A DNA stretch of 64,000 nucleotides from Synechococcus sp. (GCA_047284725.1 JBJBEO010000001.1:1784203-1848202), one strand, 5' to 3'; positions 5,033 through 51,542 are shown, counted from the stretch's first letter. Notes: a model not told the origin generated them from the sequence alone. A program made the numbers and translations.

Positions 5033-5045
5033 TTTTGCACCGCGG

Positions 5046-21573: not shown

Positions 21574-22458
21574 TCACAAGCCGGCCTGTCCATTGTCGAA
21601 GCGCTCAAAACCACAGAGACGCGCCGCCGCTTGATACTCAGGGTCGAAGCGATCCCAACGGAAACTGCGGGGATCGTAGCGACTATGGCTGCGGTCAATC
21701 GCCTGATGGGTCGTCAGGCGTGTCAGAGGAATTCCGAACTTGGCCTGCCACAGCAACACCTGGCCAGCCAGATTGCGGTATTGCGCAGAGGTGTAGCCCG
21801 AGTGGCCACTGCGATCATCCCGACCATCAACTGGCGAAACAAGACTGATATGCAAAGCGATGTTATTCACCGAGCCAACACTGGACGCTTTGGTGCGCTG
21901 GGTGACATCACCAAACGCCGACATGCCAGCACCGTAGGCGCGCTTTTCATCGGGGACGATGCGCAACCGTGCGCCATCGCGTGCAATCAACATGTGATAA
22001 CTGGCCTGATCAGCATCGTTGGGATGCGGCGTCTGAAAGAAGGCCACCGTGGCTTTCTCACTGATCACGGTTTCATGCAGCACGATCAGCAACGGCTCAG
22101 CCTGAAGAGCACGGTTCCAGGCATCGACAACTTTGCGTTCGCCGAAATTCGTGGCATCGGCCAGTTGATCCATCTCTGCTGTCAGCGCGAGCGTCTTGGC
22201 ACAGCTGGCGATCTCCTGCGCCGACGCAGGAGGCAAACCAGCATCGGCCAGTGTCATCACAGGCGGAAGGGTCAGACCCTGTTTCGGGCTTTGCCCCTTG
22301 CCCCGGACTGAGCCGTCGTCGTTGGGATTGGTATGCCCGCTGATGGAGGGATGCTGCGGATCACCCGCCCCTTGCCAGGGGAAACGAAACGGCAACGACG
22401 TGCAGCCGCTGAGCAGGATCAGAGCTGCGGCAACAGACAACGAACGAACAAGAGTCAT
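21574..22458 (-). CDS. N-acetylmuramoyl-L-alanine amidase (Amidase_2), lipoprotein
   Basis: Lipobox LSGC; IVLHET, ASYHMLI, RAYGAG, SVNN, TTH, RYDP. Confidence 0.85.
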   Translation of the reverse strand: MTLVRSLSVAAALILLSGCTSLPFRFPWQGAGDPQHPSISGHTNPNDDGSVRGKGQSPKQGLTLPPVMTLADAGLPPASAQEIASCAKTLALTAEMDQLADATNFGERKVVDAWNRALQAEPLLIVLHETVISEKATVAFFQTPHPNDADQASYHMLIARDGARLRIVPDEKRAYGAGMSAFGDVTQRTKASSVGSVNNIALHISLVSPVDGRDDRSGHSGYTSAQYRNLAGQVLLWQAKFGIPLTRLTTHQAIDRSHSRYDPRSFRWDRFDPEYQAAARLCGFERFDNGQAGL

Positions 22459-23118
22459 TTACTGCTTGCGATAGTCCCAGATTTTCCAGCGACCAGACTC
22501 TTCTTTGAGGGTGTAAATCCAGTCTTTGGTACTTGAGGACGTTTCACTGCCCTTGGGCGAGTGCAGATTGGAAACCTCGGTCACCGACACGACAATCGAA
22601 GGCATCGAAGGGGACGGCAAATAGCGGATCACCCGATTCACCTTGATAGTGGAATAGCTGTAATAGCTGTTGTTGTTCTTGAGCCACTGGATGGATCCAT
22701 CCGGCTTGGTTAAATCGGTCCATAAAGGTCCAGCCGCCACCACCTGATCAGCCAGATCGGTGTTGAAAGGCGGAGCGAAGATCTGAGATTTCACCGTCAA
22801 CCACTCCTCCACGATGGCTCTGGCTTGCTCCTGGGTGAGACCAGATGGCTGAGGAGCCGGCTGCTTCTGCGGGGGCAGCGGCTGAATCGTGGTGGATCGC
22901 TCAGAGGACTCCGGTCGCTCCACCGGCTGGGGAGCTGGAGCAGGGGCGGGGGCCGTCGCCACCGTGCTCTGACGCTGCAGCAGCACGATCACCAGCCCCA
23001 GCGCCACCAGGCCGAGGGGAAACAGCAGCAGCAGAACCAGCAGGGCTTGCTGGTTACTGAATCCTTGATCACCGCGCAGCCGATGGCGGAAGCGGCTGAT
23101 TGGCGTTGAGCGACTCAC
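22459..23118 (-). CDS. Membrane-anchored protein with pilin-like N-terminus and ARC6/IMS (DUF4101-like) domain
   Basis: QGFSNQQALLVLLLLFPLG; A..IVEEWLTVKSQIFAPPF..WLKNNNSYYSY..VTE..Y.L..GRWKIWDY. Confidence 0.75.
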   Translation of the reverse strand: MSRSTPISRFRHRLRGDQGFSNQQALLVLLLLFPLGLVALGLVIVLLQRQSTVATAPAPAPAPQPVERPESSERSTTIQPLPPQKQPAPQPSGLTQEQARAIVEEWLTVKSQIFAPPFNTDLADQVVAAGPLWTDLTKPDGSIQWLKNNNSYYSYSTIKVNRVIRYLPSPSMPSIVVSVTEVSNLHSPKGSETSSSTKDWIYTLKEESGRWKIWDYRKQ

Positions 23119-23241
23119 AGAATGACCTCCGGGAACAACGTGGTCAAAGCAGCTGCACCGTGCCTGTCGTGCCACACCCAAAGCAAGGCCATTGGACAAA
23201 CGGTCACAATGATGCACTGATCAGGATCGGAACCAGGGTGA

Positions 23242-24132
23242 TTGAAGCAGGTGCCATCAACCAGAGCCGGCGTGTCTCCTGATCCAAAGCGTCAACCCGG
23301 ACCATGGCCAGCACTGGGTTCCTGGGCTGCGATTCAGCTCCTGCATCAGGCTCCAGCCCAGGCAGCATGGGACCTGCGCCACGCAGCGGCTGTTGAAGAT
23401 CTCCTGAACGACTACATCAAGACGCTGCCTGAGGGAGCCAGCATGCCGGCGCCGAGGCTCTTCCTCTACAAAGGCACTGCGTTTTCAAGGGCCTGCCCAG
23501 GATCCGGCATCGAGGCCCCCGCCTACTGCCCTGGGGATCACACCGTTTATCTGGAAATGGGGCTGGGCGATCAAGTGGCCACCATGTACGGAGATTTCGG
23601 AGCCCTGTCGATCCTGTCGCATGAATTCGGCCACGCCTACATGAGTCAACGCCAGCTGCATCCCCCGGGCAAACAGGGAGAGCTGGCCGCTGATGGTTTC
23701 GCCGGAGGGTTCGCCCGTTATGTCGAGCAACTGGGGCTTCTGGAAGCCGGTGACATCGATGAAGCCCGCGCCACCTTTGCCGCCGTTGGCGACTATCAGG
23801 TGTATCACCATGATCACCACGGCACCCCCAACGAGCGCCGTCAGGCCTTTGAGGCCGGCTACCAGCAAGGGTTCCGTCTGCCGGGGGAGCCACCCACAGC
23901 TCAACCGCCCACAGTTCAATCACCAACCGCTCAACCACCGAGAGCACAACCCCAGCAACCCGCGCCCCAACCCGACCAACCGGCGATCGTTCCCTCTCCG
24001 ATTCCTGGTCAGGCCAACCAGGTCAGCGCCGTTGGTCCCGTCCTTGGCCTCGGCCTCGGCGTTGTTTTCATCGCCTTGATGTTGATCGCCGTTGTCACGC
24101 TGATCAACAGGGCCCGTGATGAAGAGTTTTAA
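23242..24132 (+). CDS. Neutral zinc metallopeptidase (YpfJ-like) with C-terminal TM
   Basis: AYCPGDHTVY, HEFGH, ELAADGFAG, HGT..R..AF..G. Confidence 0.85.
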   Translation: MKQVPSTRAGVSPDPKRQPGPWPALGSWAAIQLLHQAPAQAAWDLRHAAAVEDLLNDYIKTLPEGASMPAPRLFLYKGTAFSRACPGSGIEAPAYCPGDHTVYLEMGLGDQVATMYGDFGALSILSHEFGHAYMSQRQLHPPGKQGELAADGFAGGFARYVEQLGLLEAGDIDEARATFAAVGDYQVYHHDHHGTPNERRQAFEAGYQQGFRLPGEPPTAQPPTVQSPTAQPPRAQPQQPAPQPDQPAIVPSPIPGQANQVSAVGPVLGLGLGVVFIALMLIAVVTLINRARDEEF

Positions 24133-24637
24133 AACCACAGTTCCAACCCCCACAGGGTTCAGCAACCAGCACGCCCTGCTGGTGCTGTTGATTCTGTTTC
24201 CTCTGGGCTTGATGGCCATCGGCAGCCTCGCCGTTCTGTGGTTGAAACAGCCGTCCGTTGTTGCTGACACCCCTTCCAAACCAACCGCCACCGAACCCAA
24301 CCAACCTCAGGCCAGGACCAATGCCAATTCCAATTCCAACGATCACAACAAGACCACCCCAGTCCCTGATCTGATCGCGTTGCAGGAGCAACGCCTGAAT
24401 GACCTTGCCGATGCCATTTTCTGGCGGCGCCATCCATCCCTGCAAGGCGTCAAATTGAGTGGTCAAACAGGCGACTTAGCCCGTGAATGGAGCCGGATCC
24501 GCCACTGCGACGCCATCGTTGATGATCGTTTTTATCGCCTCCATCCACACATGCGCGGACGCACGATCCAGCCGAACCAGACGGAGCTGGCGGCGAGCTG
24601 GCAACGCTTGCGCGATCAAGTCGAGGGTTGCTCCTGA
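24119..24637 (+). CDS. Membrane-anchored protein with pilin-like N-terminus and duplicated helical repeat
   Basis: TGFSNQHALLVLLILFPLG; internal repeat DAIFWRRHPSLQG..LAREW / DDRFYRLHPHMRG..LAASW. Confidence 0.75.
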   Translation: MKSFKTTVPTPTGFSNQHALLVLLILFPLGLMAIGSLAVLWLKQPSVVADTPSKPTATEPNQPQARTNANSNSNDHNKTTPVPDLIALQEQRLNDLADAIFWRRHPSLQGVKLSGQTGDLAREWSRIRHCDAIVDDRFYRLHPHMRGRTIQPNQTELAASWQRLRDQVEGCS

Positions 24638-25551
24638 ACGCTCGCACGCGTCGAGCGCGGCCGCAGAACCACGACACCGATCGATGCAGGAACCGAGCGC
24701 ACATACGCAGCAAACGGATGCGAGCGGATCACCCCCTTCCCAGGCACGGCATGGATGGCTGACACGCCATCGGCATCACGCACCACAACACCCATATGCG
24801 TGACATCAAGCCCAGGAACGGACGTGGCAATCGCAAACAGATCACCATTCTGGAAGGAACGACTCGCCAGTTCCAGACCATCATTGGGGAGATAGATCTG
24901 TTCAATCGTCAGACGACGCTCCTTCTCTTGAATGCAGCGGAGCGTTGAAGGCGTCTGCAACGGGGAATAGAGAGACGGATGGTCCGACATATAGGTGAGA
25001 TTCAAGACGCGTCGCTGATGACCGGCCACCTCATCCGTGACATCCTCAACCCATCCCTGATCAGCGGCCGATGCCGCCCAGCTCTGGAAATAATGATGAC
25101 GCGAGCAGTAATCAACACGGCCCGCCTCGTATCGCATGGTTTGCGTTGTCGCCACAAACGATGGCCAATCGGATGACACAGCCAGCGCCAGAAGTTGCTC
25201 AACCAACAACATGCAATCAAAACGTGTCAGATCAACGCGCAATCGCTCTGCGCCCCCTTCATCCAGGGAAAAGGCGACATAGGGAGTGCCGAGAAACGAC
25301 TGAGCCAGGGAAGCGACGGTCTGAGCAGGCTCGAGCTCACGCATCCATCCCTTGATCTCGGAATACAACTCCTCACTGCCGGGAGCGACCTGCACCTGCG
25401 GATCCGACGCAGGACGATCCGACGCCAGGGCCGATGGCCCGATCGCACGCTGACGCTGCGGGTTGAACGGCTGATCGGCGGCAAGGCCACCTGCCGCCGA
25501 AAGAGAGACCACCAAACCCGCAAGCCCCATCCACCGGCGTGCACGCATCAC
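24616..25551 (-). CDS. AmiA-like NlpC/P60-fold amidase (DUF1460)
   Basis: FLGTPY, FDCMLLVE, RY..G.V.YCSRHHYF, GLDVTHMG, IHA. Confidence 0.87.
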   Translation of the reverse strand: MMRARRWMGLAGLVVSLSAAGGLAADQPFNPQRQRAIGPSALASDRPASDPQVQVAPGSEELYSEIKGWMRELEPAQTVASLAQSFLGTPYVAFSLDEGGAERLRVDLTRFDCMLLVEQLLALAVSSDWPSFVATTQTMRYEAGRVDYCSRHHYFQSWAASAADQGWVEDVTDEVAGHQRRVLNLTYMSDHPSLYSPLQTPSTLRCIQEKERRLTIEQIYLPNDGLELASRSFQNGDLFAIATSVPGLDVTHMGVVVRDADGVSAIHAVPGKGVIRSHPFAAYVRSVPASIGVVVLRPRSTRASVQEQPST

Positions 25552-25626: not shown

Positions 25627-26919
25627 TTGACTCCGAAATCGTTCTGCCTATCGCTGCGATGCGGACTCTCAACGACGGCCATCGCCATGGTGATCAGCGG
25701 CTGCGCCTCCGCACAACTGCCCAGTTGCGTGATCGGCCTGGAGGCACCCACCCCAGAGCAACGTCAGCGCTGGGAGGCTGCTCCTCAGGTCACCAGCCTC
25801 GACCTGGGCATTGATGGCAGCAGTTCCATGTTGGGGCTCACAGGCTCAGCCGACAGCGCACGGGCCTGGAAGGGCCTGCTCAAAGGCGTCAGCCTGGGTG
25901 CCGCGGCCAACGGGCTCAGCCTGAAGACCCAACGCATCGGCAGCGGTCGCGGCAGCACGGTCTCCAGCCCGATGCAAGCCGCCGACGCCTGTTTCTTTCA
26001 GGGGTGTGGTGCCTTTGCAGCGGTGACCTCCAGCCTTGAATCGCTCTGGAGCAGCCCAGGCCTCAGCCAGGGCAAGCCACCTCTTCGCCTCGCCATCAGC
26101 GATCTGGAGGTGAACGATGGCGACATCGCCAACCTCGTGGGAGCCATCCGACCACATGTGGAGCAGGGAGCCGTGATCGGCGTGCTTGCCGTTCGGCTGC
26201 CATTCGCAGGCAGGGTGTACAACAGCCAGGGCACCGTGATCCACGAGGGCACAGCGGAACGCCCCACCTACCTGCTGGCGACAGGGCCGCGCTCCCAGGT
26301 GCACAACCTGCTCAAAGACGTGAAAACGAAAGCAGCCCTGGCGGGGGTGCCGACAGGCTCCATGCACCTCACCCTGCTGGATGAGCAGGCCAATGCACCC
26401 ACCCTGGTGGCGAAGAGCATCGCGGGCGACAACAGCGGTTACGGCCAGCCGTTGCGTCTCGGAACAACCACCTTCAGCCCGAGTGGCAATGGAAAGTACC
26501 AATTCGCAAGGCTGTTTGAGGGAGCCAATCGTGTCGTTCTCAGCAGCGGAGTGGGCGTCAGCGCCCAAGCGCCGCTGCTGCCCGACCTCGGCCTGATCAA
26601 TGTGCTGCCGGTGGCCTTGCCTGGCACCTCAAGCCACAGCAGCGGCGTGGATGTGGATGGATTCCAGGTGAACGGCACTGACTTGAGCGTGGGCTTGGGG
26701 ATCGCCGACACCACCATCGGCGGGGCCGTGCGGGCGACGGTTGCTCGCGGCCAACTTCCGGAAAGCTGGTGGGTGCGTTGGAATCGCCTGACCCCCAAAG
26801 CAGAGGACGCACGGAATCAAACTGACGGATTATTGCTGTTGCTCACAAGTTTGAGCCAGTTGATGGTTCAAAATGGCACCACTCCAGCCGCGTCTCTCTG
26901 CCTGGCTTTCAGTCGGTAA
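25627..26919 (+). CDS. vWA-like lipoprotein
   Basis: Lipobox ISGC; LGIDGSSSM (DxSxS MIDAS-like) and downstream AISDL. Confidence 0.7.
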   Translation: MTPKSFCLSLRCGLSTTAIAMVISGCASAQLPSCVIGLEAPTPEQRQRWEAAPQVTSLDLGIDGSSSMLGLTGSADSARAWKGLLKGVSLGAAANGLSLKTQRIGSGRGSTVSSPMQAADACFFQGCGAFAAVTSSLESLWSSPGLSQGKPPLRLAISDLEVNDGDIANLVGAIRPHVEQGAVIGVLAVRLPFAGRVYNSQGTVIHEGTAERPTYLLATGPRSQVHNLLKDVKTKAALAGVPTGSMHLTLLDEQANAPTLVAKSIAGDNSGYGQPLRLGTTTFSPSGNGKYQFARLFEGANRVVLSSGVGVSAQAPLLPDLGLINVLPVALPGTSSHSSGVDVDGFQVNGTDLSVGLGIADTTIGGAVRATVARGQLPESWWVRWNRLTPKAEDARNQTDGLLLLLTSLSQLMVQNGTTPAASLCLAFSR

Positions 26920-26934
26920 TTCCTGACCAGAACG

Positions 26935-27471
26935 ATGCGAATTCTGCAGTTCATCACCCTTGCCCTGTCGGTTGCTCTTGGCATGGTGTGGATTTTTATT
27001 GTTCAAAACTCGATCTTTCTGCATGTTTTGGCTGGTCCCTTGAGTGGACCTGGCATGAATGTTGTTGACTTCCTGCAGATCGGCAGCAGTCCCGCCTTCA
27101 CCGTGTTCTGGGCTGGCTGCATCTCAGCGCTGCTGATCTGGTTTGTGATCACGCTGAGCTCGCGCCCCCGCAGCTCCGCCCAGACCCGGGGCATGCAACC
27201 GATGTGGTGGCTGGCAGCGGCCCTGCTCACCCTGTTCGGCTGGCTGTGCCTGGGCTGGTTCACAGCATTCAGCTGGACCATGAGTGGTGTCAGCCCGATC
27301 GCAGGCTCTGCTCAACTCTTTTTTCCACTTCCCCCGGGTGGGTGGCTGATGCTGATGGGATTTGTGATGCTCGATGTGATCCTGCTGTTCTGGTTACCCA
27401 CCCTGGTCGCGTCGCCTCGCACCTACCGCTTCGTGGTGCCCGGAGCCGTCACCCTTCTGGGCAGTCGCTGA
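26935..27471 (+). CDS. 4-TM membrane protein
   Basis: Four hydrophobic helices; tightly linked within the operon. Confidence 0.8.
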   Translation: MRILQFITLALSVALGMVWIFIVQNSIFLHVLAGPLSGPGMNVVDFLQIGSSPAFTVFWAGCISALLIWFVITLSSRPRSSAQTRGMQPMWWLAAALLTLFGWLCLGWFTAFSWTMSGVSPIAGSAQLFFPLPPGGWLMLMGFVMLDVILLFWLPTLVASPRTYRFVVPGAVTLLGSR

Positions 27472-27472
27472 G

Positions 27473-28972
27473 ATGAAACAGATTTTCGCCATCGGCGTCG
27501 GCGGCACCGGCGCTAAATGCATCGAGGCGCTGGTGCATCTCCATGCCTGCGGATTGCTCACCGATCAAGACGGCAACCCAGCCCGATTGGGGGTGTTTCT
27601 GGTGGAGCCGGATCAGCAGAGTGCTCTGCTGCTCCGTGCCCAGACAGCGATCAACCGCTACGGCTCCCTGCGCCGGGCCGTGGGACGTCAAAGCGACCGG
27701 TTTGCCCGCGCCGAACTGCGGGATTACGGCCAGTGGAGTCCACTGAGCACAGCCTCCGGTGCCATCAGCCTCGATCAGGTCTTCCCCAAGGCGGTGCTGC
27801 GCACCCAGGCGCCAGGGGTGGCGGCTTTGTTTGATTGCCTCTTCCCCCCCGAGGAGCAGAGTGCCGACCTGGAAGTGGGGTTCCGCGGCCGACCACCGAT
27901 CGGATCGGCAGTGATGAGCCGCATCAGCCTCGAGCAGGAGGCTCAGGTGGGCCAATGGCAGCAGATGCTGAGCGACATCCAGACCGCCGCCGGCAGCGGC
28001 GAAGCACCGGTGGTGCATCTCTTCGGCAGTGTGTTCGGCGGCACCGGCGCCTCCGGGGTCCCCACCCTCGGCCAGCTGCTCAAAAACTGGCTGAAGCGAC
28101 AGGGGCTCACCAGCGTCCAGGTGCAGGCGTCACTGCTGCTGCCCTACTTCGATTTCGAGGGGATGGCCGACGACGACACCGGTGTGCACGCCGAATCACG
28201 CAACTTCCAGCTCAACACGGACGCCGCCCTGCAGTACCTCCGCACCAGCGGTCGCGCCTGCTTCGATCGGGTCTATCTGGTGGGGAGCGACATCAAGGCG
28301 CGCTACGGCTTCAGCATCGGTGGCACGTCCCAATCGAATGCCGCCCACATGGTGGAACTGCTGGCGGCCCTCGGGGTGTGTCATCCCGGCACGACAAGCA
28401 ATGGCTATGCCCATGTGCTCAGCCGGACGGAGCAGCAGAGCATGGGCTGGGAAGACCTGCCCGACAACGAGATGGTGGGCGATGCCCTGGCCCGCGGCGC
28501 TCGCTTCGCCGTGGCATGGCGCAACAACATCACCCGTGAGATCAATGAGGCCCAGAAGGTGCCGATGCGCACCTTCCTCAGTGGTGCGCCATGGGCGCGG
28601 CGCTTCTTCCATCCTTCCGGGTCGGGCACCGACCGAGGCATGCGGCCTGGCATCCGTGACAAGGAACAGCTCACGGTGCAGAACGCCATTGATCAGTACT
28701 GCGACACACTGCTGCAGTGGCTCAACCAGGTTTCGAGCAACCTCGGCAGTGGATTCCGCCAGGAGCTGTTCACCGCCTCACTGCTAAGGCCCAGTGACCG
28801 CTTCGAGAACAACCTCAGCCGCGTGGTGAAAGGCAAGGCGAGGCCCCGCCGCCCCGAAGCCTCCGACACGGTGGAAGCGATCAAGGTGCGGATGGATCAG
28901 CTCAAGAGTGATGCCATCTCCCATCGCGGCATGGCCGGCCTTGCCGATTGTCTCTGGTCTCTTGTGGTCTGA
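27473..28972 (+). CDS. Tubulin/FtsZ-like GTPase (Tubulin_2-like)
   Basis: IGVGGTG, GFRGRPPIG, GSVFGGTGASG signature, LLPYF. Confidence 0.87.
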   Translation: MKQIFAIGVGGTGAKCIEALVHLHACGLLTDQDGNPARLGVFLVEPDQQSALLLRAQTAINRYGSLRRAVGRQSDRFARAELRDYGQWSPLSTASGAISLDQVFPKAVLRTQAPGVAALFDCLFPPEEQSADLEVGFRGRPPIGSAVMSRISLEQEAQVGQWQQMLSDIQTAAGSGEAPVVHLFGSVFGGTGASGVPTLGQLLKNWLKRQGLTSVQVQASLLLPYFDFEGMADDDTGVHAESRNFQLNTDAALQYLRTSGRACFDRVYLVGSDIKARYGFSIGGTSQSNAAHMVELLAALGVCHPGTTSNGYAHVLSRTEQQSMGWEDLPDNEMVGDALARGARFAVAWRNNITREINEAQKVPMRTFLSGAPWARRFFHPSGSGTDRGMRPGIRDKEQLTVQNAIDQYCDTLLQWLNQVSSNLGSGFRQELFTASLLRPSDRFENNLSRVVKGKARPRRPEASDTVEAIKVRMDQLKSDAISHRGMAGLADCLWSLVV

Positions 28973-29016
28973 ACCCACAACAGTCGTTCGATCACTCCCC
29001 AGCACCCTCTCAAGCC

Positions 29017-32000
29017 ATGACCTCCTCTCCCTCGCAGGACATCGTTCAGATTCCCTGGTTCCCGAAAACCGATCCACCCCTCGGAGGCGGAGCCCAGGCT
29101 GGGGAATGGCAGGGGCGTGACCAGCAGAGCCTCGGCACGATCGCCAAGAGCCTCGTCTACGAGGTGGCGACATCACGGGTGAATTCACTGCCATCGCCCT
29201 GGTCACGGGCACTGCAGTTCGAGCAGGCGGTGCTGAACTCGCGCTACCCCACGCGCGATTCCCTGCTGGAGGAGCTGTTTGGGGGCATGGCCTGTCTCGG
29301 CCTCTGGGAGATGTTTGGCCTGCGCCTCGATGCCCAGCGGGTCTCCCTGCTGGACCATGCCGACCTGCAGGACGATGCGGTCGGGCCGTTCTCCCGCAGC
29401 CTGGCCGCCTCGCTCCCTGATGGACGCAACGCCCTGTCACGCCAACCGGAGGGACGGAACCCCTGGGAAGTGGTGTATGTGTTCACCCTGCAGGGAAGCG
29501 TGGTGGGCTTCAGCTCCCCCAGCACGCTGTTCTGCCCGGCCGTTCACCTGCCTCAGCCGATTCAGGGGATGGGCTGGACCAACAGCGGACGCTTCACCTC
29601 CCCCGTGGATTTTCTGGGTGCTCCCCAGCGCCAGGCCCTGGGGGATTGGTTCAGCCACGTGAAAAACGGCATGCTCAATGCGAGCGATCTGCACAGTCAG
29701 ACCAGCGCTGGACAGATGGCCGAAGTGCTGGATCTGTTCATTCACCGGCTCACCGCGGGCCGGCTCGGCACGCCCACCCTGTCCGACACCGGACGGGTCG
29801 CCAATCTTCCCTCCAATCCGGTGGCCCTGTCGCTGCTGGCCAGGCCGGCCAAAGGCGGCGTCAGCGCCAGCCAGGCAACGCTGGAACTGGGCGATCGGCT
29901 CCAGGCACCGCTCGGTGACACCCCCGCCAGCCAGCCGGTGGTGCTGGTGGACCCCGACATGCCCAACAAGCTTGGGGTGAGCGCGGCCGACATCTGCCTC
30001 TACAAATCGGCGACGTTGGAGTCGATCGGCTTCGATCCAGGCCAGCTCGATCGCCAGTACGGCAAAGAGATCACGGTGCTCACCCCTGATCAGATCTTTC
30101 TGGATGAGCTCTATCTGGTCGCAGGAGAACAAGCGCTTCAGAACTCCTGGCTTCCCAGCCGGCTGGAGGGCGTGCCGCGGGTGAACGGCGAGGCTGTCAC
30201 CCCCCTGCTCCCCCTGCGTCCGGAGATCCGCCGACTGTTCAGCAGCCGTGAGCTCAGGGAGCGCTGCCAGCTGCGGGTGATGCAATCCAGCGTCAGCAAT
30301 GAGGTGGAAGTGAGGCTCAGCCTTCCCCTGCAAGGCCAGCGTGAGGGCTATTCGCTGGCTCGCTCCTACCCCCTGAAGGAGCAGAACCTGGTGGCGGAAG
30401 ACCTGCCCGTGATCACCCTCTGGCCCTACGTCAGCGATGAACGCTGGCGCCTCTATTACCTGTTCTGCGAAGACAGTCCGTCGGCGCTGACCGTGGATGG
30501 CTTCAGCGATTACGACCGCAAGCTGGGCCGAGATAACCAGCAGGTGGTGAAGTATTTCACCACCCAGCACTTCCCCGACCTGGTGCGCCTGAGCGAGCGC
30601 GGTCAGGATCGAGGCCTGCTGCCGGTGACCCCGCCGGCCTCGTGCCCGGATGTGGGCACCCAGTGGCAGGTCGGCATCGACTTCGGCACCTCCTTCACCA
30701 ACTTCTTCATCGATGAGGGGGGCGGGCCGGAGCGCCGGCACCTCGAGACACGGGTGATTTCCCTCACCCTGTCGCAGAAGGAAGAACGTCAGCGACTGCT
30801 CAACCAGTACTTCGTTCCCGAGGAAATGCTGCCCAACACCGACAGGGCCAGCAATCCCCCCACCGCCACGGCCATCAGCCTGCGCGGCTGGCAGGAAGTG
30901 CTCGGTCAGGTGCCTGAGCTCTTCCATGAGGCCCGGCTGCGGGTGCCCAGCCCCGGTGAATTCGGTGGGGCTGAATTACGCACGGGCTTCAAATGGGAGC
31001 AGATGCAGTACCAGAAACCCTTCCTTAAAGAGGTGGCGCTGCTGGTCAGTGCCAACGCCGCTGCCAACGGTGCCCAGGAACTGCAGTGGTCGGTGTCGTA
31101 TCCCAGCGCCTTCTCCCCCAATGAAGTGGCCCGCTACCGGCGGGTGTGGGTCGAGCTCTGCGATGACCTCAACCAACTCACCGGCCTGCGCCATGCCCTC
31201 AATGCCAAAGCCGGAGAGGGGGGACTGCAAACCGAGGCTGTGGCCTTCGCCAGCTACTTCGGCAACTTCCAGAACCGCCAGATGGTGCACACCTCCTGCC
31301 TCGACGTGGGTGGAGGCACCACCGACATCTCGATCTGGCAAGACAACCGACTGATCCATCAGGTGTCTGTGCCGTTTGCAGGGCGCGACATCAGTTCGCA
31401 GCTGCTGCGCCGCAAACCGTCGTTCCTCAAGTCGCTGTTTCCACCGAGCCTCACCGCCGACATCAGCGACGACGAAGCCAAAGCCCGTCAGGACCGCAAC
31501 TTCACCAGCCGCCTCGACAACATCATGCGCTACGGCTCCGATGAGCTGCTCGCCGGCCGGCTCGACATGCTGGTGAATCAGGAGTCGACCCTTCAGGAAC
31601 CGCTGCAGCAATTCCTCAGTCTGCTGTCGGTGAGTTTTGCGGGGATCTACCACTACCTGGGTCAGGTGCAGCAGGTGCTGCGCGACGAAGGCAAACTGAC
31701 CCGTCGCACGCCGACGCCGGTCTACATCGGTGGCAATGGCGGACGTTTGATCAACTGGATTGATGCCAGTTCTCGTTTCCAGAAGGGGGGCGATCCCGAC
31801 CGCCTGATGGAGCGGATGCAGATCAAGGCCTCCGGATGCGACGCCGGCAACGCCTGCACCACCCTGTCGGATGCCTACAAGGATGAAACCGCCTGCGGCC
31901 TGATCAGTTCGGGCGTGAATCTGATCGGCGACTTTGATCCCCGTGACGACGTCATGGTCTGCGGGGCCAGTCTGGTGGTGAATGACCTGCACTTCGCGTG

Positions 32001-32313
32001 CGGTGATCGCGTGCAGCTTCCCCACACGCTGTCGCGAATTGATCGCTATGAGCTGCCCGATCTCGATGCGATCCGCACCTTTGTGGAGCACTACGACGAC
32101 AGCATCGCCGAACTGCGCATTGGAAGCCTGCTGCCGATTGGGGAGCTGTGCGACCTCGACACCCTCTGGGCTGAAGTGGAAACGGAAGTGCGCTCCCTCT
32201 GCCTGGCCAAGGTGGGGCAGGACGCCAAGGACCTCGAACCCGAACCCGGATTCATCCTCGGATTGCGGGCACTCACCAACACGCTCGGCCGGCTCTGGGC
32301 CGAACGCTTCTGA
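29017..32313 (+). CDS. Large protein with C-terminal actin/Hsp70-fold ATPase domain
   Basis: VGIDFGTSFT (phosphate 1), SYPSAFS, TEAVA (connect 1), DVGGGTTDIS (phosphate 2), IGGNGGR (adenosine); N-terminal SLPSPWSRA. Confidence 0.87.
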   Translation: MTSSPSQDIVQIPWFPKTDPPLGGGAQAGEWQGRDQQSLGTIAKSLVYEVATSRVNSLPSPWSRALQFEQAVLNSRYPTRDSLLEELFGGMACLGLWEMFGLRLDAQRVSLLDHADLQDDAVGPFSRSLAASLPDGRNALSRQPEGRNPWEVVYVFTLQGSVVGFSSPSTLFCPAVHLPQPIQGMGWTNSGRFTSPVDFLGAPQRQALGDWFSHVKNGMLNASDLHSQTSAGQMAEVLDLFIHRLTAGRLGTPTLSDTGRVANLPSNPVALSLLARPAKGGVSASQATLELGDRLQAPLGDTPASQPVVLVDPDMPNKLGVSAADICLYKSATLESIGFDPGQLDRQYGKEITVLTPDQIFLDELYLVAGEQALQNSWLPSRLEGVPRVNGEAVTPLLPLRPEIRRLFSSRELRERCQLRVMQSSVSNEVEVRLSLPLQGQREGYSLARSYPLKEQNLVAEDLPVITLWPYVSDERWRLYYLFCEDSPSALTVDGFSDYDRKLGRDNQQVVKYFTTQHFPDLVRLSERGQDRGLLPVTPPASCPDVGTQWQVGIDFGTSFTNFFIDEGGGPERRHLETRVISLTLSQKEERQRLLNQYFVPEEMLPNTDRASNPPTATAISLRGWQEVLGQVPELFHEARLRVPSPGEFGGAELRTGFKWEQMQYQKPFLKEVALLVSANAAANGAQELQWSVSYPSAFSPNEVARYRRVWVELCDDLNQLTGLRHALNAKAGEGGLQTEAVAFASYFGNFQNRQMVHTSCLDVGGGTTDISIWQDNRLIHQVSVPFAGRDISSQLLRRKPSFLKSLFPPSLTADISDDEAKARQDRNFTSRLDNIMRYGSDELLAGRLDMLVNQESTLQEPLQQFLSLLSVSFAGIYHYLGQVQQVLRDEGKLTRRTPTPVYIGGNGGRLINWIDASSRFQKGGDPDRLMERMQIKASGCDAGNACTTLSDAYKDETACGLISSGVNLIGDFDPRDDVMVCGASLVVNDLHFACGDRVQLPHTLSRIDRYELPDLDAIRTFVEHYDDSIAELRIGSLLPIGELCDLDTLWAEVETEVRSLCLAKVGQDAKDLEPEPGFILGLRALTNTLGRLWAERF

Positions 32314-32321
32314 GCAGAACC

Positions 32322-33257
32322 ATGATCACTCCATCACGCAAACTGACGCTGTCGGCACTGGCGCTCACCGGCCTGATTGGTGCGTTGTCGTGCTCCGCCG
32401 TCGTTCATGCCGAACCGCCGACGGCCACAGGAACACCAAACCAGGAGACAGCAGCCCCCGCAGAAGTCTCGCCCCAGCAACCGAGCCAACAAGAAGGCCA
32501 GCAACATCAGTCTCCACGCATGGACGCACAACCGACACCTCGGTCGGTTCCATTTGTCGGAACAGGTGGGATCCTTCTCCTCGCTGGAGGAGGGTTGGTG
32601 GTGGCCCTCGGCAGCCTGGCCACGGGGATCACCGCCCACCTGCAGCTGCGGCGCAGCCATCAGCGCCTGCGCCAGCAATCCGACACGCTGCAGACCCGGC
32701 TCAGCGAACTGGAGCTGCAAGTGGAGCAAGACCGGATTGCCCAGCTGGCGCGACGGACACCCCGCGCCGCCACACCCATGGCTCCACGCCCGGCACCTTT
32801 TGCCGCGAAACCGGTGCCTGCCGCCGCGCCACCACCACCGGCGCCACCGGCACCACAACCCGCGGTTCCAGCACCGGCTCCAGTGCCGGTCAGCAAGGCC
32901 GGCTTGATCGCAGCCCTGAACAGCGGCGATCGCCAGCCCCTGCGTGAGGCCGCCACCGCCGAACTGAACATCACCAGCGACTCGGAAAACGCCATCGCCA
33001 CCGGCAGAGCCGTGTCGACCGAACTGGAGGCGGTGGCCGGGGGGGGAAGCTACTGGTTGATTGCCATCGACCAGCACCATTGGCTGTTTCCAACGGATCG
33101 CACCCTGAAGGGGTTTGCCGCTGCGCAGCCCTCGAAAGGCCTGTTTCACTACGAGAAGCAGACCATCGCCCAACCGCAGCTGCTGGAGCCTGCACAGCTC
33201 AACCCCAATGGTGACCGCTGGATCGTGACCTCCATGGGCCGCATCGGCACACCCTGA
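32322..33257 (+). CDS. Membrane protein: signal, TM, coiled coil, Pro-rich linker, beta domain
   Basis: Architecture read from sequence; last gene of the operon. Confidence 0.8.
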   Translation: MITPSRKLTLSALALTGLIGALSCSAVVHAEPPTATGTPNQETAAPAEVSPQQPSQQEGQQHQSPRMDAQPTPRSVPFVGTGGILLLAGGGLVVALGSLATGITAHLQLRRSHQRLRQQSDTLQTRLSELELQVEQDRIAQLARRTPRAATPMAPRPAPFAAKPVPAAAPPPPAPPAPQPAVPAPAPVPVSKAGLIAALNSGDRQPLREAATAELNITSDSENAIATGRAVSTELEAVAGGGSYWLIAIDQHHWLFPTDRTLKGFAAAQPSKGLFHYEKQTIAQPQLLEPAQLNPNGDRWIVTSMGRIGTP

Positions 33258-33282
33258 AGGCGGGGCGGGCCGGGGCGGAGCG

Positions 33283-33987
33283 TCAGTCCAAGGCCTGAAG
33301 CCGCCGTTCCAGTGCTCGCAGCCGGGTTTCCAGGCTGTGCTGCAGTGGATCGGCAAGCAGGCCGATGCTGCCTTTCTGCTCGAGGTACCAACGACGACCG
33401 TGTTCAACCACGGTGGCGGTGCCGGCAGCCAGCAATTCCATCTCAGCTGGTAGCGGTGCCTCACAGGCGAGCTCAAACAAGCGCCCAAGGCTCTCCACCT
33501 GAGTCTGGCGTTGAAGCATTCCCGGTCGGGGCAGGAGAACCGAGCTGCCATCCTGCAGTTCCACCATCCATGTGGTGCCCTGAGCGAACACTTCGAGTTC
33601 GATCTCAGCGATCGCTCCACTCAAGGTGCGGCCACTCACACTGCAAGGACGGGCAAAGGGCTGCAGCAGGGCAGGGTTGTTGCGATAAACGTCCAGCAAC
33701 CCCTCCAGGGGAAGATTGAGCGCAGGGATGAGGGCTTCAGCAGAGTCTGGCCGCACCGGCAGCTCAGTCTCACGACGTGGCGCATCAGCACCAATCAGCT
33801 TTTGATCCCGCAGGATCTGCAACTCTTGTTCAATGCTTTCCAGGCGATCAGAAAGATCGGAAACGTCTTGCTTGACGCTCTCAAAGCTGCGAGAAATATT
33901 GTCATTCGTTTCAACGAAATGATCACTCAACTGCCGAACACTCTTCAGCAGAAACTTCACTGATTCAACAAGTTTTCGATCATCCAT
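33283..33987 (-). CDS. Coiled-coil protein with C-terminal domain resembling that of 32322-33257
   Basis: N-terminal heptads; ELE..G..W..L.P..LF..W...G.IG pattern shared. Confidence 0.78.
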   Translation of the reverse strand: MDDRKLVESVKFLLKSVRQLSDHFVETNDNISRSFESVKQDVSDLSDRLESIEQELQILRDQKLIGADAPRRETELPVRPDSAEALIPALNLPLEGLLDVYRNNPALLQPFARPCSVSGRTLSGAIAEIELEVFAQGTTWMVELQDGSSVLLPRPGMLQRQTQVESLGRLFELACEAPLPAEMELLAAGTATVVEHGRRWYLEQKGSIGLLADPLQHSLETRLRALERRLQALD

Positions 33988-34002
33988 CGATCCGTCTCCT
34001 GA

Positions 34003-34368
34003 TTATTGCTGGGTGCGCTTCACTGACTCCTGCGCTGCCCGCAGCAGCTGATCGAGCTCACCATCATCACTGGGCTCAGAGGGGGAAGATCCCCGCAGCG
34101 AAGCGGCACGATGCCCTGGTTCGTCAACGTCATCAAAGGAAGGCTGATCGGCAGGCAACAGGCCCCGATTCGCCTCCCTGACGGCATCAGGCAAGAGCAC
34201 AAGATCCAGCAACTGACCGAATCCGCAAAGGCCAAACGTGAAGAGCATCACCACGCCATACCCCACCTGCCCGAGATACATGCGTTGCACACCACAAACG
34301 CCAACAAACGAGAGGCACCAGAGCAGGTAGCCCAGGGATAACTCTTTTTGCTCTCGAGAGGGCTCCAA
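34003..34368 (-). CDS. TM2/NINE domain protein
   Basis: GYLLW...GVCGVQRMYLGQ...G..L.TFGLCGFGQLLDL.L.P. Confidence 0.88.
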   Translation of the reverse strand: MEPSREQKELSLGYLLWCLSFVGVCGVQRMYLGQVGYGVVMLFTFGLCGFGQLLDLVLLPDAVREANRGLLPADQPSFDDVDEPGHRAASLRGSSPSEPSDDGELDQLLRAAQESVKRTQQ

Positions 34369-44147: not shown

Positions 44148-44227
44148 GGCGCTTCACCAACAACGTTGACAAAGGTCTGACAAGGCTGCCGTCGTTGTCT
44201 ATTGCTGGGATCAGCACGACCAAGCCC

Positions 44228-44995
44228 ATGCGCCGCACCGTTTCCTCCCTCGCCGTTGCGGGTTTGCTACCCGTTGCCTTGGGAGTTCAGTCGCCCGCTC
44301 TGGCGCAGGTGGGTGGCGTGGCCCCCCGCCAGCCCGTCACGGTCGCCGTCAAAGAGATCACCAATTCTGCGTCAGGCGTGTGGTGGTGGAGCCCGTCGGT
44401 GTCGAAAAAACTCACCGACATGCTCGCCAATGAGCTGAAGTCGAGCGGCAATTTCACCCTAGTGGAGCGACAGAGGCTCAATCAGGTGCTGAGCGAGCAG
44501 GAACTGGCGGAGCTGGGAATCACCCGCCAGAGCACAGCCCCGAAGCGAGGCATGATGACCGGCGCCAAGTACTACGTACTGGGCAGCGTCAGTGACTACC
44601 AGGAGAACGTCGAAACCAAGAGCGGTGGCGGCGGCTTCAACATCATGGGCTTCGGTCAGCGCAAGACCTCGAATCAGAGCAAGGCCTACGTGGCCCTTGA
44701 TATCCGCGTGGTCGACACCACAACAGGAGAGATTGCCTATGCCCGCACCATCGAGGGCAAAGCCACATCAACGTCCACCTCCACCTCGTCCAGCGGCGGC
44801 CTCTACGGCCTTTCCTTCAGCGATTCCCAGTCTTCATCCAACAAAGTGCCAGCATCCAAGGCCGTACGTGCCGCGATGATCGAAGTGGGCGACTATCTCA
44901 ATTGCGTGCTCTATCTGCGCAACAGCTGCATCGCTGACTACGACCGCAAGGAACGCAACCGCCGGGAGGCCACCAGAGACGTTCTCGAATTCTGA
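44228..44995 (+). CDS. CsgG/HfaB family exported protein
   Basis: FTLVERQRLNQVLSEQEL, GAKYYVLGSV, LDIRVVDTTTGEI. Confidence 0.88.
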   Translation: MRRTVSSLAVAGLLPVALGVQSPALAQVGGVAPRQPVTVAVKEITNSASGVWWWSPSVSKKLTDMLANELKSSGNFTLVERQRLNQVLSEQELAELGITRQSTAPKRGMMTGAKYYVLGSVSDYQENVETKSGGGGFNIMGFGQRKTSNQSKAYVALDIRVVDTTTGEIAYARTIEGKATSTSTSTSSSGGLYGLSFSDSQSSSNKVPASKAVRAAMIEVGDYLNCVLYLRNSCIADYDRKERNRREATRDVLEF

Positions 44996-45552
44996 TGGCG
45001 CCCTCACCACGCCTGAAACTCAGGCCACTGCTGATGGCCCTGCTGTTGCCTCTGCTTTGCCATGGCGGCAACGGTGCTCCCGGACGACCGGCGTCCGCAT
45101 CAGCCTTGCTGACGGAGGCCCCAGCAGCACCGTCCGTCAGGAGCCAAGAGGCCCTGCAGGACTTCCTGCGTCAGCTCGATCGAGCTGAAGATCTCTACAA
45201 CCTCCTGATGATTGAGGAGGCCGACCGCGTCAGCGACCTCACCGTGATGCGCATCAACGCCTTCCTCGAGAGCCATCGCCATCTCAAGGGAGTGGAGGAC
45301 ATCGAGGCGGTGCTGCAGGCCCGCACCAGCCAGCTGCGCGACCTGCGGGCACTGAAGCAGGTCGATCGGAGGCTGGAGGAAGTTCAAGCAGCCGACCGCT
45401 ATGACCGGCTCCAGCCTGAACGGCTCAGGCGACAGAGAGAACGACAGGAACAGGCCTATCGCCTGGCGGTGGAGCTGCGTCGTGCCGCGGAAGCCAGAGC
45501 AGCCCGCTGGTGGCCGCTCTGGTATGGCAGTCCTCTGCTTCGGATGCGCTGA
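44995..45552 (+). CDS. Hypothetical exported helical protein
   Basis: 1-bp overlap with the CsgG-family gene; signal-like N-terminus. Confidence 0.65.
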   Translation: MAPSPRLKLRPLLMALLLPLLCHGGNGAPGRPASASALLTEAPAAPSVRSQEALQDFLRQLDRAEDLYNLLMIEEADRVSDLTVMRINAFLESHRHLKGVEDIEAVLQARTSQLRDLRALKQVDRRLEEVQAADRYDRLQPERLRRQRERQEQAYRLAVELRRAAEARAARWWPLWYGSPLLRMR

Positions 45553-47729: not shown

Positions 47730-48202
47730 CCCCACCCATGCTCTCCGCACTAACGTTGCGCCAGTGCGATTTTGACCGCTTCGGCACCGCGCTTCTGCCG
47801 GTGGACGACATGGTTCCCCACAGTGATCGGGATGCCGAGCTGCAGTTCGCAGGAGACAACCTGCGGTACTACGTGATGCGTCTCAAACGACGACCTGCCG
47901 TGGTTGGCAGCATGACCCGCCATCTCAAAGCCACGCAATGCCTGGGTTCAGCCGATGCCAACCCCTGGTGGCTCGCGGTTGCCAGTGCAACCCTGCTGCC
48001 TGAGCAACTCGATGCCTCCAGCGTGAAGCTGGTGAAAGTGATGCCAGGCGAAGGCGTGAAACTGCATCCAGGCACCTGGCATGCCGGTCCCTTTTTTGCA
48101 GCCGACACCGCCCTGTTCTTCAATCTGGAACTGAGCGACACCAACCTCAACGACCACAACTGCCAACAGCTGGGTACACCGCTCAGACTGCGTCTGGACT
48201 GA
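47726..48202 (+). CDS. Ureidoglycolate lyase-like cupin
   Basis: FDRFG, MTRH..TQCL, GVKLHPGTWHAGP. Confidence 0.8.
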   Translation: MTPPMLSALTLRQCDFDRFGTALLPVDDMVPHSDRDAELQFAGDNLRYYVMRLKRRPAVVGSMTRHLKATQCLGSADANPWWLAVASATLLPEQLDASSVKLVKVMPGEGVKLHPGTWHAGPFFAADTALFFNLELSDTNLNDHNCQQLGTPLRLRLD

Positions 48203-48429
48203 TTGGCAACTGACACGCCAGACGAGACCAAAATTCGGATTGGTGTGTGTTGTGAGAACGACGCGTTGCGATCAGCGTCGGTGGCGCCTGGAACGATGAC
48301 GCAAGGCTTTGATCATGCGCCTTGGTTTCGAGAGAACACGCTCCACCTCGATCCGGTTCGACGCCCACAGCAGCACGGAGCACAACAGGATGACGCCAAC
48401 AAGACCGATGTAAAACCCGAGCACTGAGC

Positions 48430-48618
48430 TCAGGCCGCCAGAGAGATCGCATCGTGATCGTCCACGTTTGTCTGCAGATCGGCGAACGTTTCACCCTCGT
48501 CGATGGCATAAAGCTTGAACAAGGCCATGGCGGCTTCATCCCAGCGCTCAGCCTCCACCGCCTCCAACATCTGCTGGAAGCACATCACATTCACCACTTC
48601 CAGATCGAGCGCGTCCAT
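48430..48618 (-). CDS. Small acidic hypothetical protein
   Basis: Protein-like ORF. Confidence 0.5.
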   Translation of the reverse strand: MDALDLEVVNVMCFQQMLEAVEAERWDEAAMALFKLYAIDEGETFADLQTNVDDHDAISLAA

Positions 48619-48822
48619 CTCAGCCAGGCAGCTGGGTGAAAGCTATCAACCCCCAGCACGAAAAACAACGACAACCACAAACAATCGATGCGTTTGGCTT
48701 GAGGCAAGTCGACTGACAAGGGCCATGGCGAACCATGGCCCCAGAGATGAGCAATGCAACAAAGGAAGGTTGGCGGTGGATCATCGGGCTGCTAAGACGT
48801 CCAGGGAGACCTCGAACAATCA

Positions 48823-49020
48823 ATGACACCAACCACGCGCATGCACGTGTTGCGCCGTTCTCGCGAGATCGTCAACGACATTCTCACAGAACAGGAAAAA
48901 CAGGAGTATCAGATCATCAGCCAGCTGGACGAGGTAATTGCTAAAATCTCATCTGGAGTAGAAGAAGCCAACAAAAAAGAAAGCACAAGCAGCGCCAAAG
49001 CAGACGGGTCGAATTCATAA
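48823..49020 (+). CDS. Small hypothetical protein
   Basis: Helical ORF. Confidence 0.45.
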   Translation: MTPTTRMHVLRRSREIVNDILTEQEKQEYQIISQLDEVIAKISSGVEEANKKESTSSAKADGSNS

Positions 49021-51387: not shown

Positions 51388-51542
51388 TTATTGAGCCCCT
51401 AGAGTCACAGAAGAAGAATAAACACTTGAAAAAGATTCAAGAATCAAACCAGAAGAATGCAGATACGCTTGGACGCCAAACAATAGTTTTTAGCCAAGAA
51501 TAAAGCACGAAAATGCCACACCTCGCACTTAGAGTACATTAT

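Follow-up and report, generated by a model that had tools for sequence, protein, structure and literature searches.

A conserved gene module of cyanobacteria and other bacteria that pairs a predicted tubulin-fold GTPase with a predicted giant actin/Hsp70-fold ATPase

Tubulin-fold and actin-fold nucleoside triphosphatases (NTPases) are the two great cytoskeletal engines, and in the divisome they occur as a membrane-linked pair, FtsZ and FtsA. Here, we describe a gene cluster at positions 25627-34368 of a 64,000-nucleotide stretch of Synechococcus sp. DNA (GCA_047284725.1, JBJBEO010000001.1:1784203-1848202; this whole stretch is called the window), in which the gene for a predicted tubulin/FtsZ-fold GTPase, P3, adjoins that for a giant protein, P4, whose C-terminal half is a predicted ATPase of the actin/Hsp70 (ASKHA) fold. 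With the partner families P1, P2 and P5/P6, they make up a conserved module of five families, which cyanobacteria and members of several further phyla inherit as a whole. The genes of the locus are listed below, with lengths in amino acids (aa) of the translated open reading frame (ORF).

25627-26919, plus strand: P1, lipoprotein, predicted periplasmic; 430 aa in the ORF translation, from a TTG start
26935-27471, plus strand: P2, small protein of the inner membrane (four hydrophobic segments); 178 aa
27473-28972, plus strand: P3, predicted tubulin/FtsZ-fold GTPase (PF13809; AlphaFold2 (AF2) model and Foldseek); 499 aa
29017-32313, plus strand: P4, predicted C-terminal actin/Hsp70-fold (ASKHA) ATPase; 1,098 aa from an ATG
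32322-33257, plus strand: P5, membrane protein with a C-terminal domain of ~90 aa; 311 aa
33283-33987, minus strand: P6, soluble paralogue of P5, with which it has the C-terminal domain in common; 234 aa
34003-34368, minus strand: P7, TM2-domain protein, a neighbour only (Pfam TM2, E 1e-12); 121 aa

The pairing resembles FtsZ-FtsA in that a tubulin-fold GTPase gene adjoins an actin-fold ATPase gene, the partners are membrane-linked and the best Pfam and PDB sequence matches of P4 include FtsA. It differs in that P4 is three times larger, with an N-terminal region of ~500 aa, the gene order is reversed and P3 lacks the FtsZ C-terminal domain.

The sections of Makarova and Koonin (2010, PMC2875224) that deal with FtsZl1 describe proteins of ~1,000 aa with an FtsZ-like N-terminus, an extended coiled coil and a helical C-terminus, encoded beside vWA proteins (COG2304), P-loop GTPases, kinases and OmpA/MotA-type proteins, and propose membrane remodelling as the function of these systems. 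The entries there are 763-1,208 aa long (cyanobacterial examples 910-1,127 aa, several of them in the order vWA-FtsZl1-B7-MotB(COG1360)), and a Magnetospirillum locus holds a 1,626-aa COG0443 (DnaK) protein; no Synechococcus entry is found across the six supplements. P3 is like FtsZl1 in passing the gathering score of PF13809 and, according to the same sections, in keeping the T1 and T4 GTP-binding loops while the FtsZ/tubulin C-terminal domain is unrecognizable. Both have membrane-protein neighbours, and genes of the MotA/TolQ and OmpA/MotB types accompany them in some genomes, here in 20 of the 80 related loci surveyed below. In contrast to the long coiled coil reported for FtsZl1, P3 is short, with no extended coiled coil seen in its model, and its partners are P1, P2, P4 and the P5 family instead of true vWA proteins, P-loop GTPases and kinases. 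Identity with an FtsZl1 operon was considered and rejected: P3 is short, no neighbour is a vWA protein by sequence, and an actin-fold ATPase is not among the FtsZl1 neighbours named in those sections. The link to this work made in the initial annotation thus stands for the Tubulin_2 kinship and, as far as those sections go, falls for the vWA partner, the ~1,000-aa architecture and the actin-fold neighbour. Judged by sequence, P3 represents a distinct short-protein branch of Pfam Tubulin_2, and the module a branch of the Tubulin_2/FtsZl1 kind of system.

A second set of relatives comes from Kaur et al. (2020, PMC7159879), where, in the portions concerned, GTPase-centric systems, whether or not they include tubulin and HSP70, are predicted to be conflict systems. 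Like the module described here, these are multi-gene, membrane-linked systems with tubulin- and HSP70-superfamily proteins, enriched in multicellular bacteria, with repeat domains such as WD40 at their periphery. They differ in being centred on TRAFAC GTPases (GAP1-type) and FNIII proteins, and their tubulin and HSP70+GrpE themes are non-overlapping and belong to Firmicutes and Actinobacteria, whereas the window module has no P-loop GTPase and pairs a tubulin-fold with an ASKHA-fold protein. Santana-Molina et al. (2023, PMC9871819), in the relevant passage, set Tubulin_2 proteins aside as divergent and unanalysed. The absence of a matching characterized system, as first proposed, is borne out by PADLOC, which gives 0 matches for all seven window proteins, and by the literature, in which no relevant publication was found: full texts hold nothing on a short Tubulin_2 protein with a giant ASKHA protein, most subscription journals lying outside the search.

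The two NTPases and their operon

The five co-oriented genes separated by 1-44 bp that were first reported agree with the six-frame ORF listing, which gives spacers of 15, 1, 44 and 8 nt from P1 to P5, the P2 stop lying 1 nt ahead of the P3 start; the convergent P5 and P6 stops are 25 nt apart. Each motif quoted at that stage is present in the translations: DGSSS in P1, GVGGTG and FGGTGASG in P3, and DFGTS, TEAVA, DVGGGTTD and GGNGGR in P4. The open frame of P4 (28948-32313, plus strand) begins with a TTG; from the ATG at 29017 the product has 1,098 aa, and full-length homologues are ~1,087-1,112 aa long, many exactly 1,098 (best 120 of 141). Hydropathy finds one segment in P1 (N-terminal), four in P2, two in P5, two in P7 and none in P3, P4 or P6, and so agrees with the four transmembrane (TM) segments claimed for P2. 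Pfam and NCBIfam give no significant match for P1, P2, P5 or P6. The G+C content of the cluster (0.62-0.65) lies within the range of the whole window (0.40-0.66), and the cluster is therefore not compositionally foreign. Consensus scans find one promoter-like site (1.4 expected) and 11 terminator-like sites (7.1 expected), numbers that are uninformative, and Rfam and tRNA scans of the window return 0 matches.

P3 matches Pfam Tubulin_2 (PF13809) at E 1.7e-7 and 31.3 bits (gathering 27), over profile positions 143-232 of 356 only; it falls below the threshold of the Pfam Tubulin family (FtsZ-type GTPase domain), and precomputed PF13809 assignments are found on 118 of the 120 homologues listed. 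Its AF2 model, from a 61-sequence alignment, has a predicted local distance difference test (pLDDT) score of 92.0 and a predicted TM-score (pTM) of 0.94. The initial claim of a tubulin-like GTPase was checked by structure search: all 50 matches listed by Foldseek in the PDB are tubulin, CetZ, FtsZ, TubZ or OdinTubulin (E 2.6e-5 to 2.6e-4, probability 1.00), at modest, target-normalized TM-scores of 0.23-0.42. The model comprises a Rossmann-type GTPase domain followed, past about residue 330, by helices only (DSSP), and it lacks the beta-sheet C-terminal domain of FtsZ and tubulin. The GTPase domain of P3 is thus predicted to have the tubulin/FtsZ fold. Residues 8-13 (GVGGTG) and 188-195 (FGGTGASG) are what we take to be the glycine-rich T1 loop and the T4 signature GGTG-x-G. 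In 61 diverse sequences, G10, G11, G13, S186, G189 and G192 are invariant, as are Q287 and N289, which may be a functional equivalent of the T7 catalytic loop.

Members of the P3 family are mostly ~480-560 aa long among the top 150 listed. Two homologues of 761-763 aa (P0256 and P0263) carry an extra N-terminal extension of ~260 aa whose family is unnamed, and a 664-aa metagenomic protein (P0245) is an apparent P2-P3 fusion with a degenerate T1 loop, perhaps a decaying copy, perhaps an artefact of sequencing.

P4 is built from a conserved N-terminal peptide, an alpha/beta N-terminal region of ~500 aa and a C-terminal ASKHA ATPase. Its AF2 model (32-sequence alignment) has a pLDDT of 82.7 and a pTM of 0.72. 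The top 50 Foldseek matches in the PDB are all Hsp70/DnaK nucleotide-binding domains or MreB (E 6.6e-6 to 6e-5; target-normalized TM-scores 0.25-0.49), and a viral fold library returns Hsp70 homologues only. Sequence comparison leans elsewhere within the same superfamily: actin, MreB and FtsA come up in a profile search of the PDB (best E 2.7e-6), and Pfam FtsA (E 9.2e-5, 23.2 bits vs 31.8), Pfam MreB (11.1 bits vs 27) and NCBIfam ftsA (17.9 bits vs 175.85) are matched below threshold, the FtsA and MreB matches being confined to the phosphate-2 stretch. Pfam HSP70 matches neither the window P4 (E<=1) nor any of 21 diverse orthologues (E<=0.1). P4 carries the four motifs DFGTS, TEAVA, DVGGGTTD and GGNGGR, which we take to be phosphate-1, connect-1, phosphate-2 and adenosine, respectively, and across 51 sequences from several phyla G553, D555, F556, G557, E740, D763, G765, D770, G906 and N907 are invariant. 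The C-terminal half of P4 is accordingly modelled with an actin/Hsp70 (ASKHA) nucleotide-binding fold. As first proposed, a full motif set and an actin-type fold follow an unassigned N-terminal region of ~550 aa. The conservation of the nucleotide-binding motifs of both P3 and P4 indicates that they are under selection.

The first ~545 residues of P4 gave no family or fold in the ESM Atlas or the viral fold library; the best ESM Atlas score, 0.89, is to unnamed clusters. SrfB (PF07520) was considered for this region and rejected: it came from a cluster scoring 0.82 with 19% SrfB members, and hmmscan of 22 P4 sequences was negative. Residues 1-59 are mostly of low confidence in the model, yet they are strongly conserved in sequence, with W31, P59 and W62 invariant across phyla in the same 51 sequences, a pattern that would fit partner binding. 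Three cyanobacterial loci hold extra P4 paralogues (L025:17406-19598, L029:18317-20515 and L014:16922-19906), which lack the first ~330 profile positions and have degenerate motifs (DFRSD for DFGTS, Q for E740, GGIG for GGNG); they are probably pseudo-enzymes inside the same operons. Source names of P3- and P4-like sequences are almost all 'hypothetical protein', the exceptions being one 'Tubulin-like protein', one 'tubulin-like domain-containing protein' and, for one P4-like sequence, 'cell division protein FtsA'.

Conservation of the module and its partner families

Relatives of P3 are numerous. A word-indexed search finds 499 at E<=1e-3, the best 120 of which are 60-100% identical, and a 13-sequence P3 profile finds 1,776 representatives of 50%-identity clusters at E<=1e-3, 1,444 at E<=1e-10 and 384 at E<=1e-30. 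Pattern matches numbered at least 600 in a scan that took one genome from each species; of those 600, 574 were verified as relatives, and the best 80 loci were retained, in all of which ORFs were called, clustered and searched with profiles. They comprise 58 cyanobacterial loci from many families (with one Gloeobacterales entry), 18 non-cyanobacterial loci and 4 unlabelled ones, from metagenome-assembled genomes. The non-cyanobacterial loci come from Pyrinomonadaceae and other Acidobacteriota, Candidatus Poribacteria, Selenomonadaceae, a Veillonellaceae entry, one Bacteroidaceae and one alphaproteobacterium.

Gene order is strongly maintained in these loci. A P4 homologue lies downstream of P3 on the same strand in 76 of the 80; of the four that lack it, L006 and L043 run out within 300 bp past P3, and the sister Selenomonadales loci L076 and L080 have 1.7-1.8 kb of downstream sequence without P4. 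A co-oriented P2 homologue directly precedes P3 in 77 of the 80, the misses being L019 (7.3 kb away), L076 (none) and L078 (contig edge). P1 is found upstream of P3 in 63 loci, where 31 of the copies are co-oriented and 32 divergent, the latter mostly in non-picocyanobacterial cyanobacteria, and a P5-family gene follows next to P4 in 59/76. Median gaps are 3 bp between P2 and P3 and 19.5 bp between P3 and P4.

Moreover, P3 and P4 are naturally fused in 3 of the 150 P3 representatives listed. In P0362 (1,605 aa), P4 profile positions 5-1072 of 1079 align at residues 505-1597; P0285 (1,341 aa) covers positions 6-801, and P0348 (737 aa) is truncated. All three are single-member metagenomic clusters; since each represents a cluster of its own at 50% identity, they are unlikely to stem from one common error of assembly. 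The functional linkage initially proposed for the five genes and the P5 paralogue is thus upheld by the neighbourhood survey and the fusions, and the recurrence of the gene order in 80 loci of several phyla is more than chance. The composition of the module and the partnership of P3 with P4, taken alone, are held here with high confidence.

The partner families are less readily named. The N-terminal hydrophobic segment of P1 ends in ...VISGC, which is lipobox-like, and the family is defined by the conserved lipobox Cys and the motifs D-G-[ST]-x-S-M and V-T-D-L; among 49 sequences, D63, S67, G70 and D159 are invariant and C26 is at least 90% conserved. The term 'vWA-like lipoprotein' used at the outset holds for the lipobox-like segment and for DGSSS (residues 63-67), a metal-ion-dependent adhesion site (MIDAS)-type DxSxS motif that by itself does not define a vWA domain; it fails for vWA similarity by sequence. 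Pfam VWA matches neither the window P1 nor 8 diverse orthologues, and 0/49 family members at a useful E (one reaches E 0.22); a PDB profile search finds no match, the ESM Atlas returns unnamed clusters only, and none of the 120 relatives listed from a profile search of 5.8 G proteins carries a Pfam domain. Identity as a vWA protein was rejected on these searches; the negative concerns sequence similarity only, and a very remote vWA fold is possible. P1 appears to be the founding member of an unnamed family of predicted periplasmic lipoproteins, and Synechococcus sp. RS9916 is among the organisms with a homologue of it.

P5 consists of an N-terminal hydrophobic segment, a Q/P-rich stretch, a TM segment (the second hydrophobic segment, residues 78-96), a putative coiled coil, a Pro-rich linker and a C-terminal domain of ~90 aa, the label 'coiled coil' for P5 and P6 being that of the initial annotation. 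That annotation had also spoken of a coiled-coil paralogue converging on the operon; the relationship of P6 to P5 is faint in BLASTP (E 0.075) and visible with profiles only: first-round orthologue hidden Markov models (HMMs) of P5 and P6 match each other's C-terminal domain at i-E 2.9e-7 and 3e-10. It is from these first-round profiles that paralogy is read, as an iterated P6 profile drew in WD40-only proteins. A domain-only profile finds 153 copies of the C-terminal domain in 133 proteins of 59 loci, with no Pfam or PDB match for the domain. The picocyanobacterial loci L001-L005, L007 and L008 retain the convergent pair, P5 on the plus and P6 on the minus strand. Non-picocyanobacterial cyanobacteria have tandem arrays instead, with up to six P5-family matches per locus, and in 6/6 arrays tested the last member carries a WD40 propeller. 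These WD40-fused proteins are:

L044:18557-20668
L033:18488-20500
L046:19116-20948
L050:17616-19103
L047:17188-18828
L014:20034-21491

The TM2 gene P7 is present and converges on the cluster, as first noted; the partner role given to it there is not borne out, since tblastn finds a homologue in 0/80 related loci. P7 is thus a neighbour only, outside the conserved module.

A further component is seen in relatives. In 20 of the 80 loci, a stator-type gene pair stands in the operon or its immediate flank. The first gene encodes 540-800 aa with a Pfam MotA_ExbB domain and a tail of 350-500 aa, read as coiled-coil-like by Pfam and PADLOC, and its best PADLOC match is ZorA (E 8e-14); the second encodes a putative peptidoglycan binder of 200-300 aa that is OmpA/MotB-like (Pfam OmpA) and matches ZorB (best E 2.6e-13). 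Both genes occur in 6/11 picocyanobacterial, 13/18 non-cyanobacterial and 1/4 unlabelled loci and in 0/47 other cyanobacterial ones. In the window, tblastn finds no stator homologue within the 64 kb, and the corresponding position is occupied by the TM2 gene and a GT2 glycosyltransferase gene. The likeness to Zorya lies in the relatives' long-tailed MotA-like and MotB/OmpA-like proteins, which match the ZorA and ZorB models; the differences are that the relatives have no equivalent of ZorC, D, E, F or G, that P1-P5 have no PADLOC match and that the window itself lacks ZorAB-like genes. Part of the ZorA score stems from the long tail of repetitive composition, and the same proteins match SMC-type models such as JetC and LmuB. 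Membership of Zorya was therefore rejected for the window, with 0 PADLOC matches and no stator, and for the relatives, which are ZorA/ZorB-like without Zor effectors. The stator pair is followed by unnamed conserved genes, which belong to a family of 226 aa in picocyanobacteria (L002:11620-12300) and to one of 321 aa in Poribacteria (L060:19678-20643); neither has a Pfam or PADLOC match.

A P3 tree of 79 sequences (quick IQ-TREE search, LG+G4; two loci with P3 ORFs <440 aa left out) places 54/55 cyanobacterial sequences on one side of a branch with a Shimodaira-Hasegawa-like approximate likelihood ratio (SH-aLRT) support of 99. The Gloeobacterales sequence groups with non-cyanobacterial ones beside a long branch, a placement to which a warning on long-branch joins applies. 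Within cyanobacteria, the tree conflicts with taxonomy: the sister group of the picocyanobacteria consists of Synechocystis and two unclassified metagenome-assembled genomes, and none of Hapalosiphonaceae, Xenococcaceae and Nostocaceae stays together. The genes flanking the cluster in the window have almost no counterparts in other loci, picocyanobacteria included. No entry named PCC 6803 stands in the 90%-identity cluster to which P3 of Synechocystis salina belongs, which is a weak hint at accessory status and no proof of absence.

Three loci, one of them picocyanobacterial and two acidobacterial, have a staphylococcal-nuclease (SNase)-family gene upstream of P1 at a distance of up to ~1.2 kb (L003:6268-6945, minus strand; L052:7192-7839, minus; L069:2859-3443, plus), and a fourth copy is located downstream in L068; it is possibly an effector, or a coincidence.

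Proposed mechanism, rival explanations and significance

The explanation favoured here combines the conserved two-NTPase module with a mechanism and an envelope-triggered, defence-type role, and as a whole it is put forward tentatively, its prospects falling a little short of even. By analogy with FtsZ-FtsA, P3 and P4 would form one cytoplasmic GTPase/ATPase complex; the natural fusions are the evidence that suggests physical contact between them. P2 and the P5/P6 proteins would tether this complex to the inner membrane, with P1 as its periplasmic arm. A change in the envelope would be passed through P1, P2 and P5 and, in complete versions of the system, also through a proton-driven, wall-anchored stator and its tail, and would switch GTP-dependent assembly of P3, which the ATP cycle of P4 would then remodel or reset. 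The window would hold a stator-less derivative. The role is the least certain element: a system for conflict or stress response that is triggered at the envelope is placed slightly ahead of a housekeeping cytoskeleton because the stator is ZorA-like, the flanks are variable and the P3 tree is incongruent with taxonomy. The P5 arrays with their WD40 ends, the pseudo-enzyme P4 paralogues and the occasional adjacent SNase genes argue in the same direction, as does the prediction, in the relevant portions of Kaur et al. (2020, PMC7159879), of conflict systems that bear tubulin and HSP70.

A number of observations weigh against this explanation. No core protein of the window or of an acidobacterial set matches any PADLOC model, the core contains no nuclease, protease, TIR or pore-type effector, and Pfam recognizes no restriction or other defence genes in the rest of the window. 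Because 54/55 cyanobacterial P3 sequences fall in one clade, much of the inheritance is vertical, as in a housekeeping system, and because the window has no stator, the stator is not essential to the function of this copy. The missing beta-sheet domain and helical C-terminal half in the P3 model mean that canonical protofilament assembly is not established, and the contact of P3 with P4, the tethering to the membrane and all the signalling steps are putative.

Several of these points serve the rival in which FtsZ-FtsA-like P3 and P4 are a housekeeping envelope-remodelling or division-accessory machine that organizes the inner membrane, wall and outer membrane, with P1 as an outer arm, in constriction, tethering or vesicle release. 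The near-monophyly of cyanobacterial P3 suits it, as do retention of the cluster in a genome whose longest contig is ~2.6 Mb, the high identity of the best 120 listed relatives, the named ones of which are picocyanobacterial, the FtsA and MreB sequence matches of P4, and a core with no effector domain or PADLOC match. Amidase genes and an ARC6-like gene upstream in the window, with similar genes near the cluster in L011, L022 and L049, point the same way, and membrane remodelling is what the sections on FtsZl1 in PMC2875224 propose for related systems. We nevertheless judge this role rather unlikely: the flanks are otherwise not conserved, the P3 tree is incongruent with taxonomy inside the cyanobacteria, the stator tail and PADLOC matches resemble ZorA and not TolQ or MotA, and variable paralogue arrays and WD40 fusions are unusual in a core cytoskeleton; the Synechocystis salina cluster adds a hint only. 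The Hsp70 likeness of P4 allows another account, that of a dedicated chaperone pair in which P4 folds, assembles or disassembles P3 or membrane clients with no force-generating filament. It would explain why Foldseek ranks Hsp70/DnaK nucleotide-binding domains first, would accommodate a P3 without the canonical domain for protofilament contacts and has a parallel in the HSP70-containing GTPase systems outlined in Kaur et al. (2020, PMC7159879). It is improbable, given that P4 has no Hsp70 substrate-binding domain, the cluster encodes no DnaJ or GrpE partner, Pfam HSP70 fails on the window P4 and its 21 orthologues, the best sequence-level matches are actin, MreB and FtsA, and none of the chaperones found resembles the N-terminal region of 500 aa.

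The stator of 20/80 loci, the lipoprotein and membrane partners, and the CsgG-like, PilZ and GGDEF/EAL genes of the window would also suit a surface-motility or secretion apparatus, in which a proton-driven stator and cytoplasmic NTPases move or export a surface component; the Agl-Glt gliding complex may be comparable. However, the module has no conserved association with any secretin, pilin, adhesin, ABC exporter or substrate gene, the stator is missing from the window and from 47/47 non-picocyanobacterial cyanobacterial loci, and the taxa, from rumen Selenomonadaceae to sponge Poribacteria, have no motility type in common, which makes this apparatus a distinctly improbable candidate. That unrelated genes stand side by side by chance is refuted by a gene order kept across phyla and by the P3-P4 fusion proteins, and deserves practically no credence.

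The most far-reaching interpretation is that of an undescribed, phylum-spanning machine in which P3 and P4 form an obligate inner-membrane complex, in some cases as a single polypeptide, with lipoprotein, 4-TM and coiled-coil partner families of its own, ancestrally driven or gated by a ZorAB-type motor; it would be either a new envelope cytoskeletal motor or a Zorya-like immunity system with a polymer effector, and we regard the case for such a machine as evenly balanced. If true, an obligate coupling of tubulin-fold and actin-fold NTPases outside cell division would be a new entry on the short list of prokaryotic cytoskeletal systems, and the link to a ZorAB/MotAB-type 5:2 stator in relatives would offer a testable route by which signals pass from envelope to cytoplasm. 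The module is well defined comparatively and uncharacterized, and four of its five families (P1, P2, P4 and P5) lie below Pfam family thresholds, without a functional name. It is present in ecologically dominant picocyanobacteria, in the bloom formers Microcystis, Trichodesmium and Nodularia and in Arthrospira, so that its function matters for the microbiology of oceans and lakes, be it cyanophage defence, vesicle release or envelope maintenance.

Other genes of the window

Immediately upstream of the cluster, positions 21574-25551 encode an Amidase_2 protein, an ARC6-like IMS-domain protein, a Zn-peptidase and an AmiA-like amidase; homologues of the ARC6-like protein or the amidases are those found near the module in the three loci named above. 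Downstream, positions 44195-45552 hold a CsgG-family lipoprotein gene (E 8e-47) followed by a 185-aa ORF, which may be a curli-type secretion pair. The C-terminus of the protein encoded at 17204-18241 matches a cyanophage outer-membrane-protein beta-barrel family, PF24653, at E 8.2e-6 and 26.5 bits (gathering 27). The remaining genes also include those for SPFH proteins, ZnuA, P450 and PilZ.

The stretch 48000-56300 has a low G+C content (0.40-0.48 vs ~0.6 elsewhere), is probably an acquired island and contains three cyclic di-GMP (c-di-GMP) genes:

49582-51387: GGDEF protein
51543-53240, minus strand: PAS-GGDEF-EAL protein
55020-56282: PilJ-GGDEF protein

At 4992-6753, an orange carotenoid protein gene (Carot_N and NTF2 domains) is immediately followed by a fatty-acid-desaturase-family gene, whose product we presume may be a carotenoid ketolase that would supply the chromophore of the orange carotenoid protein.

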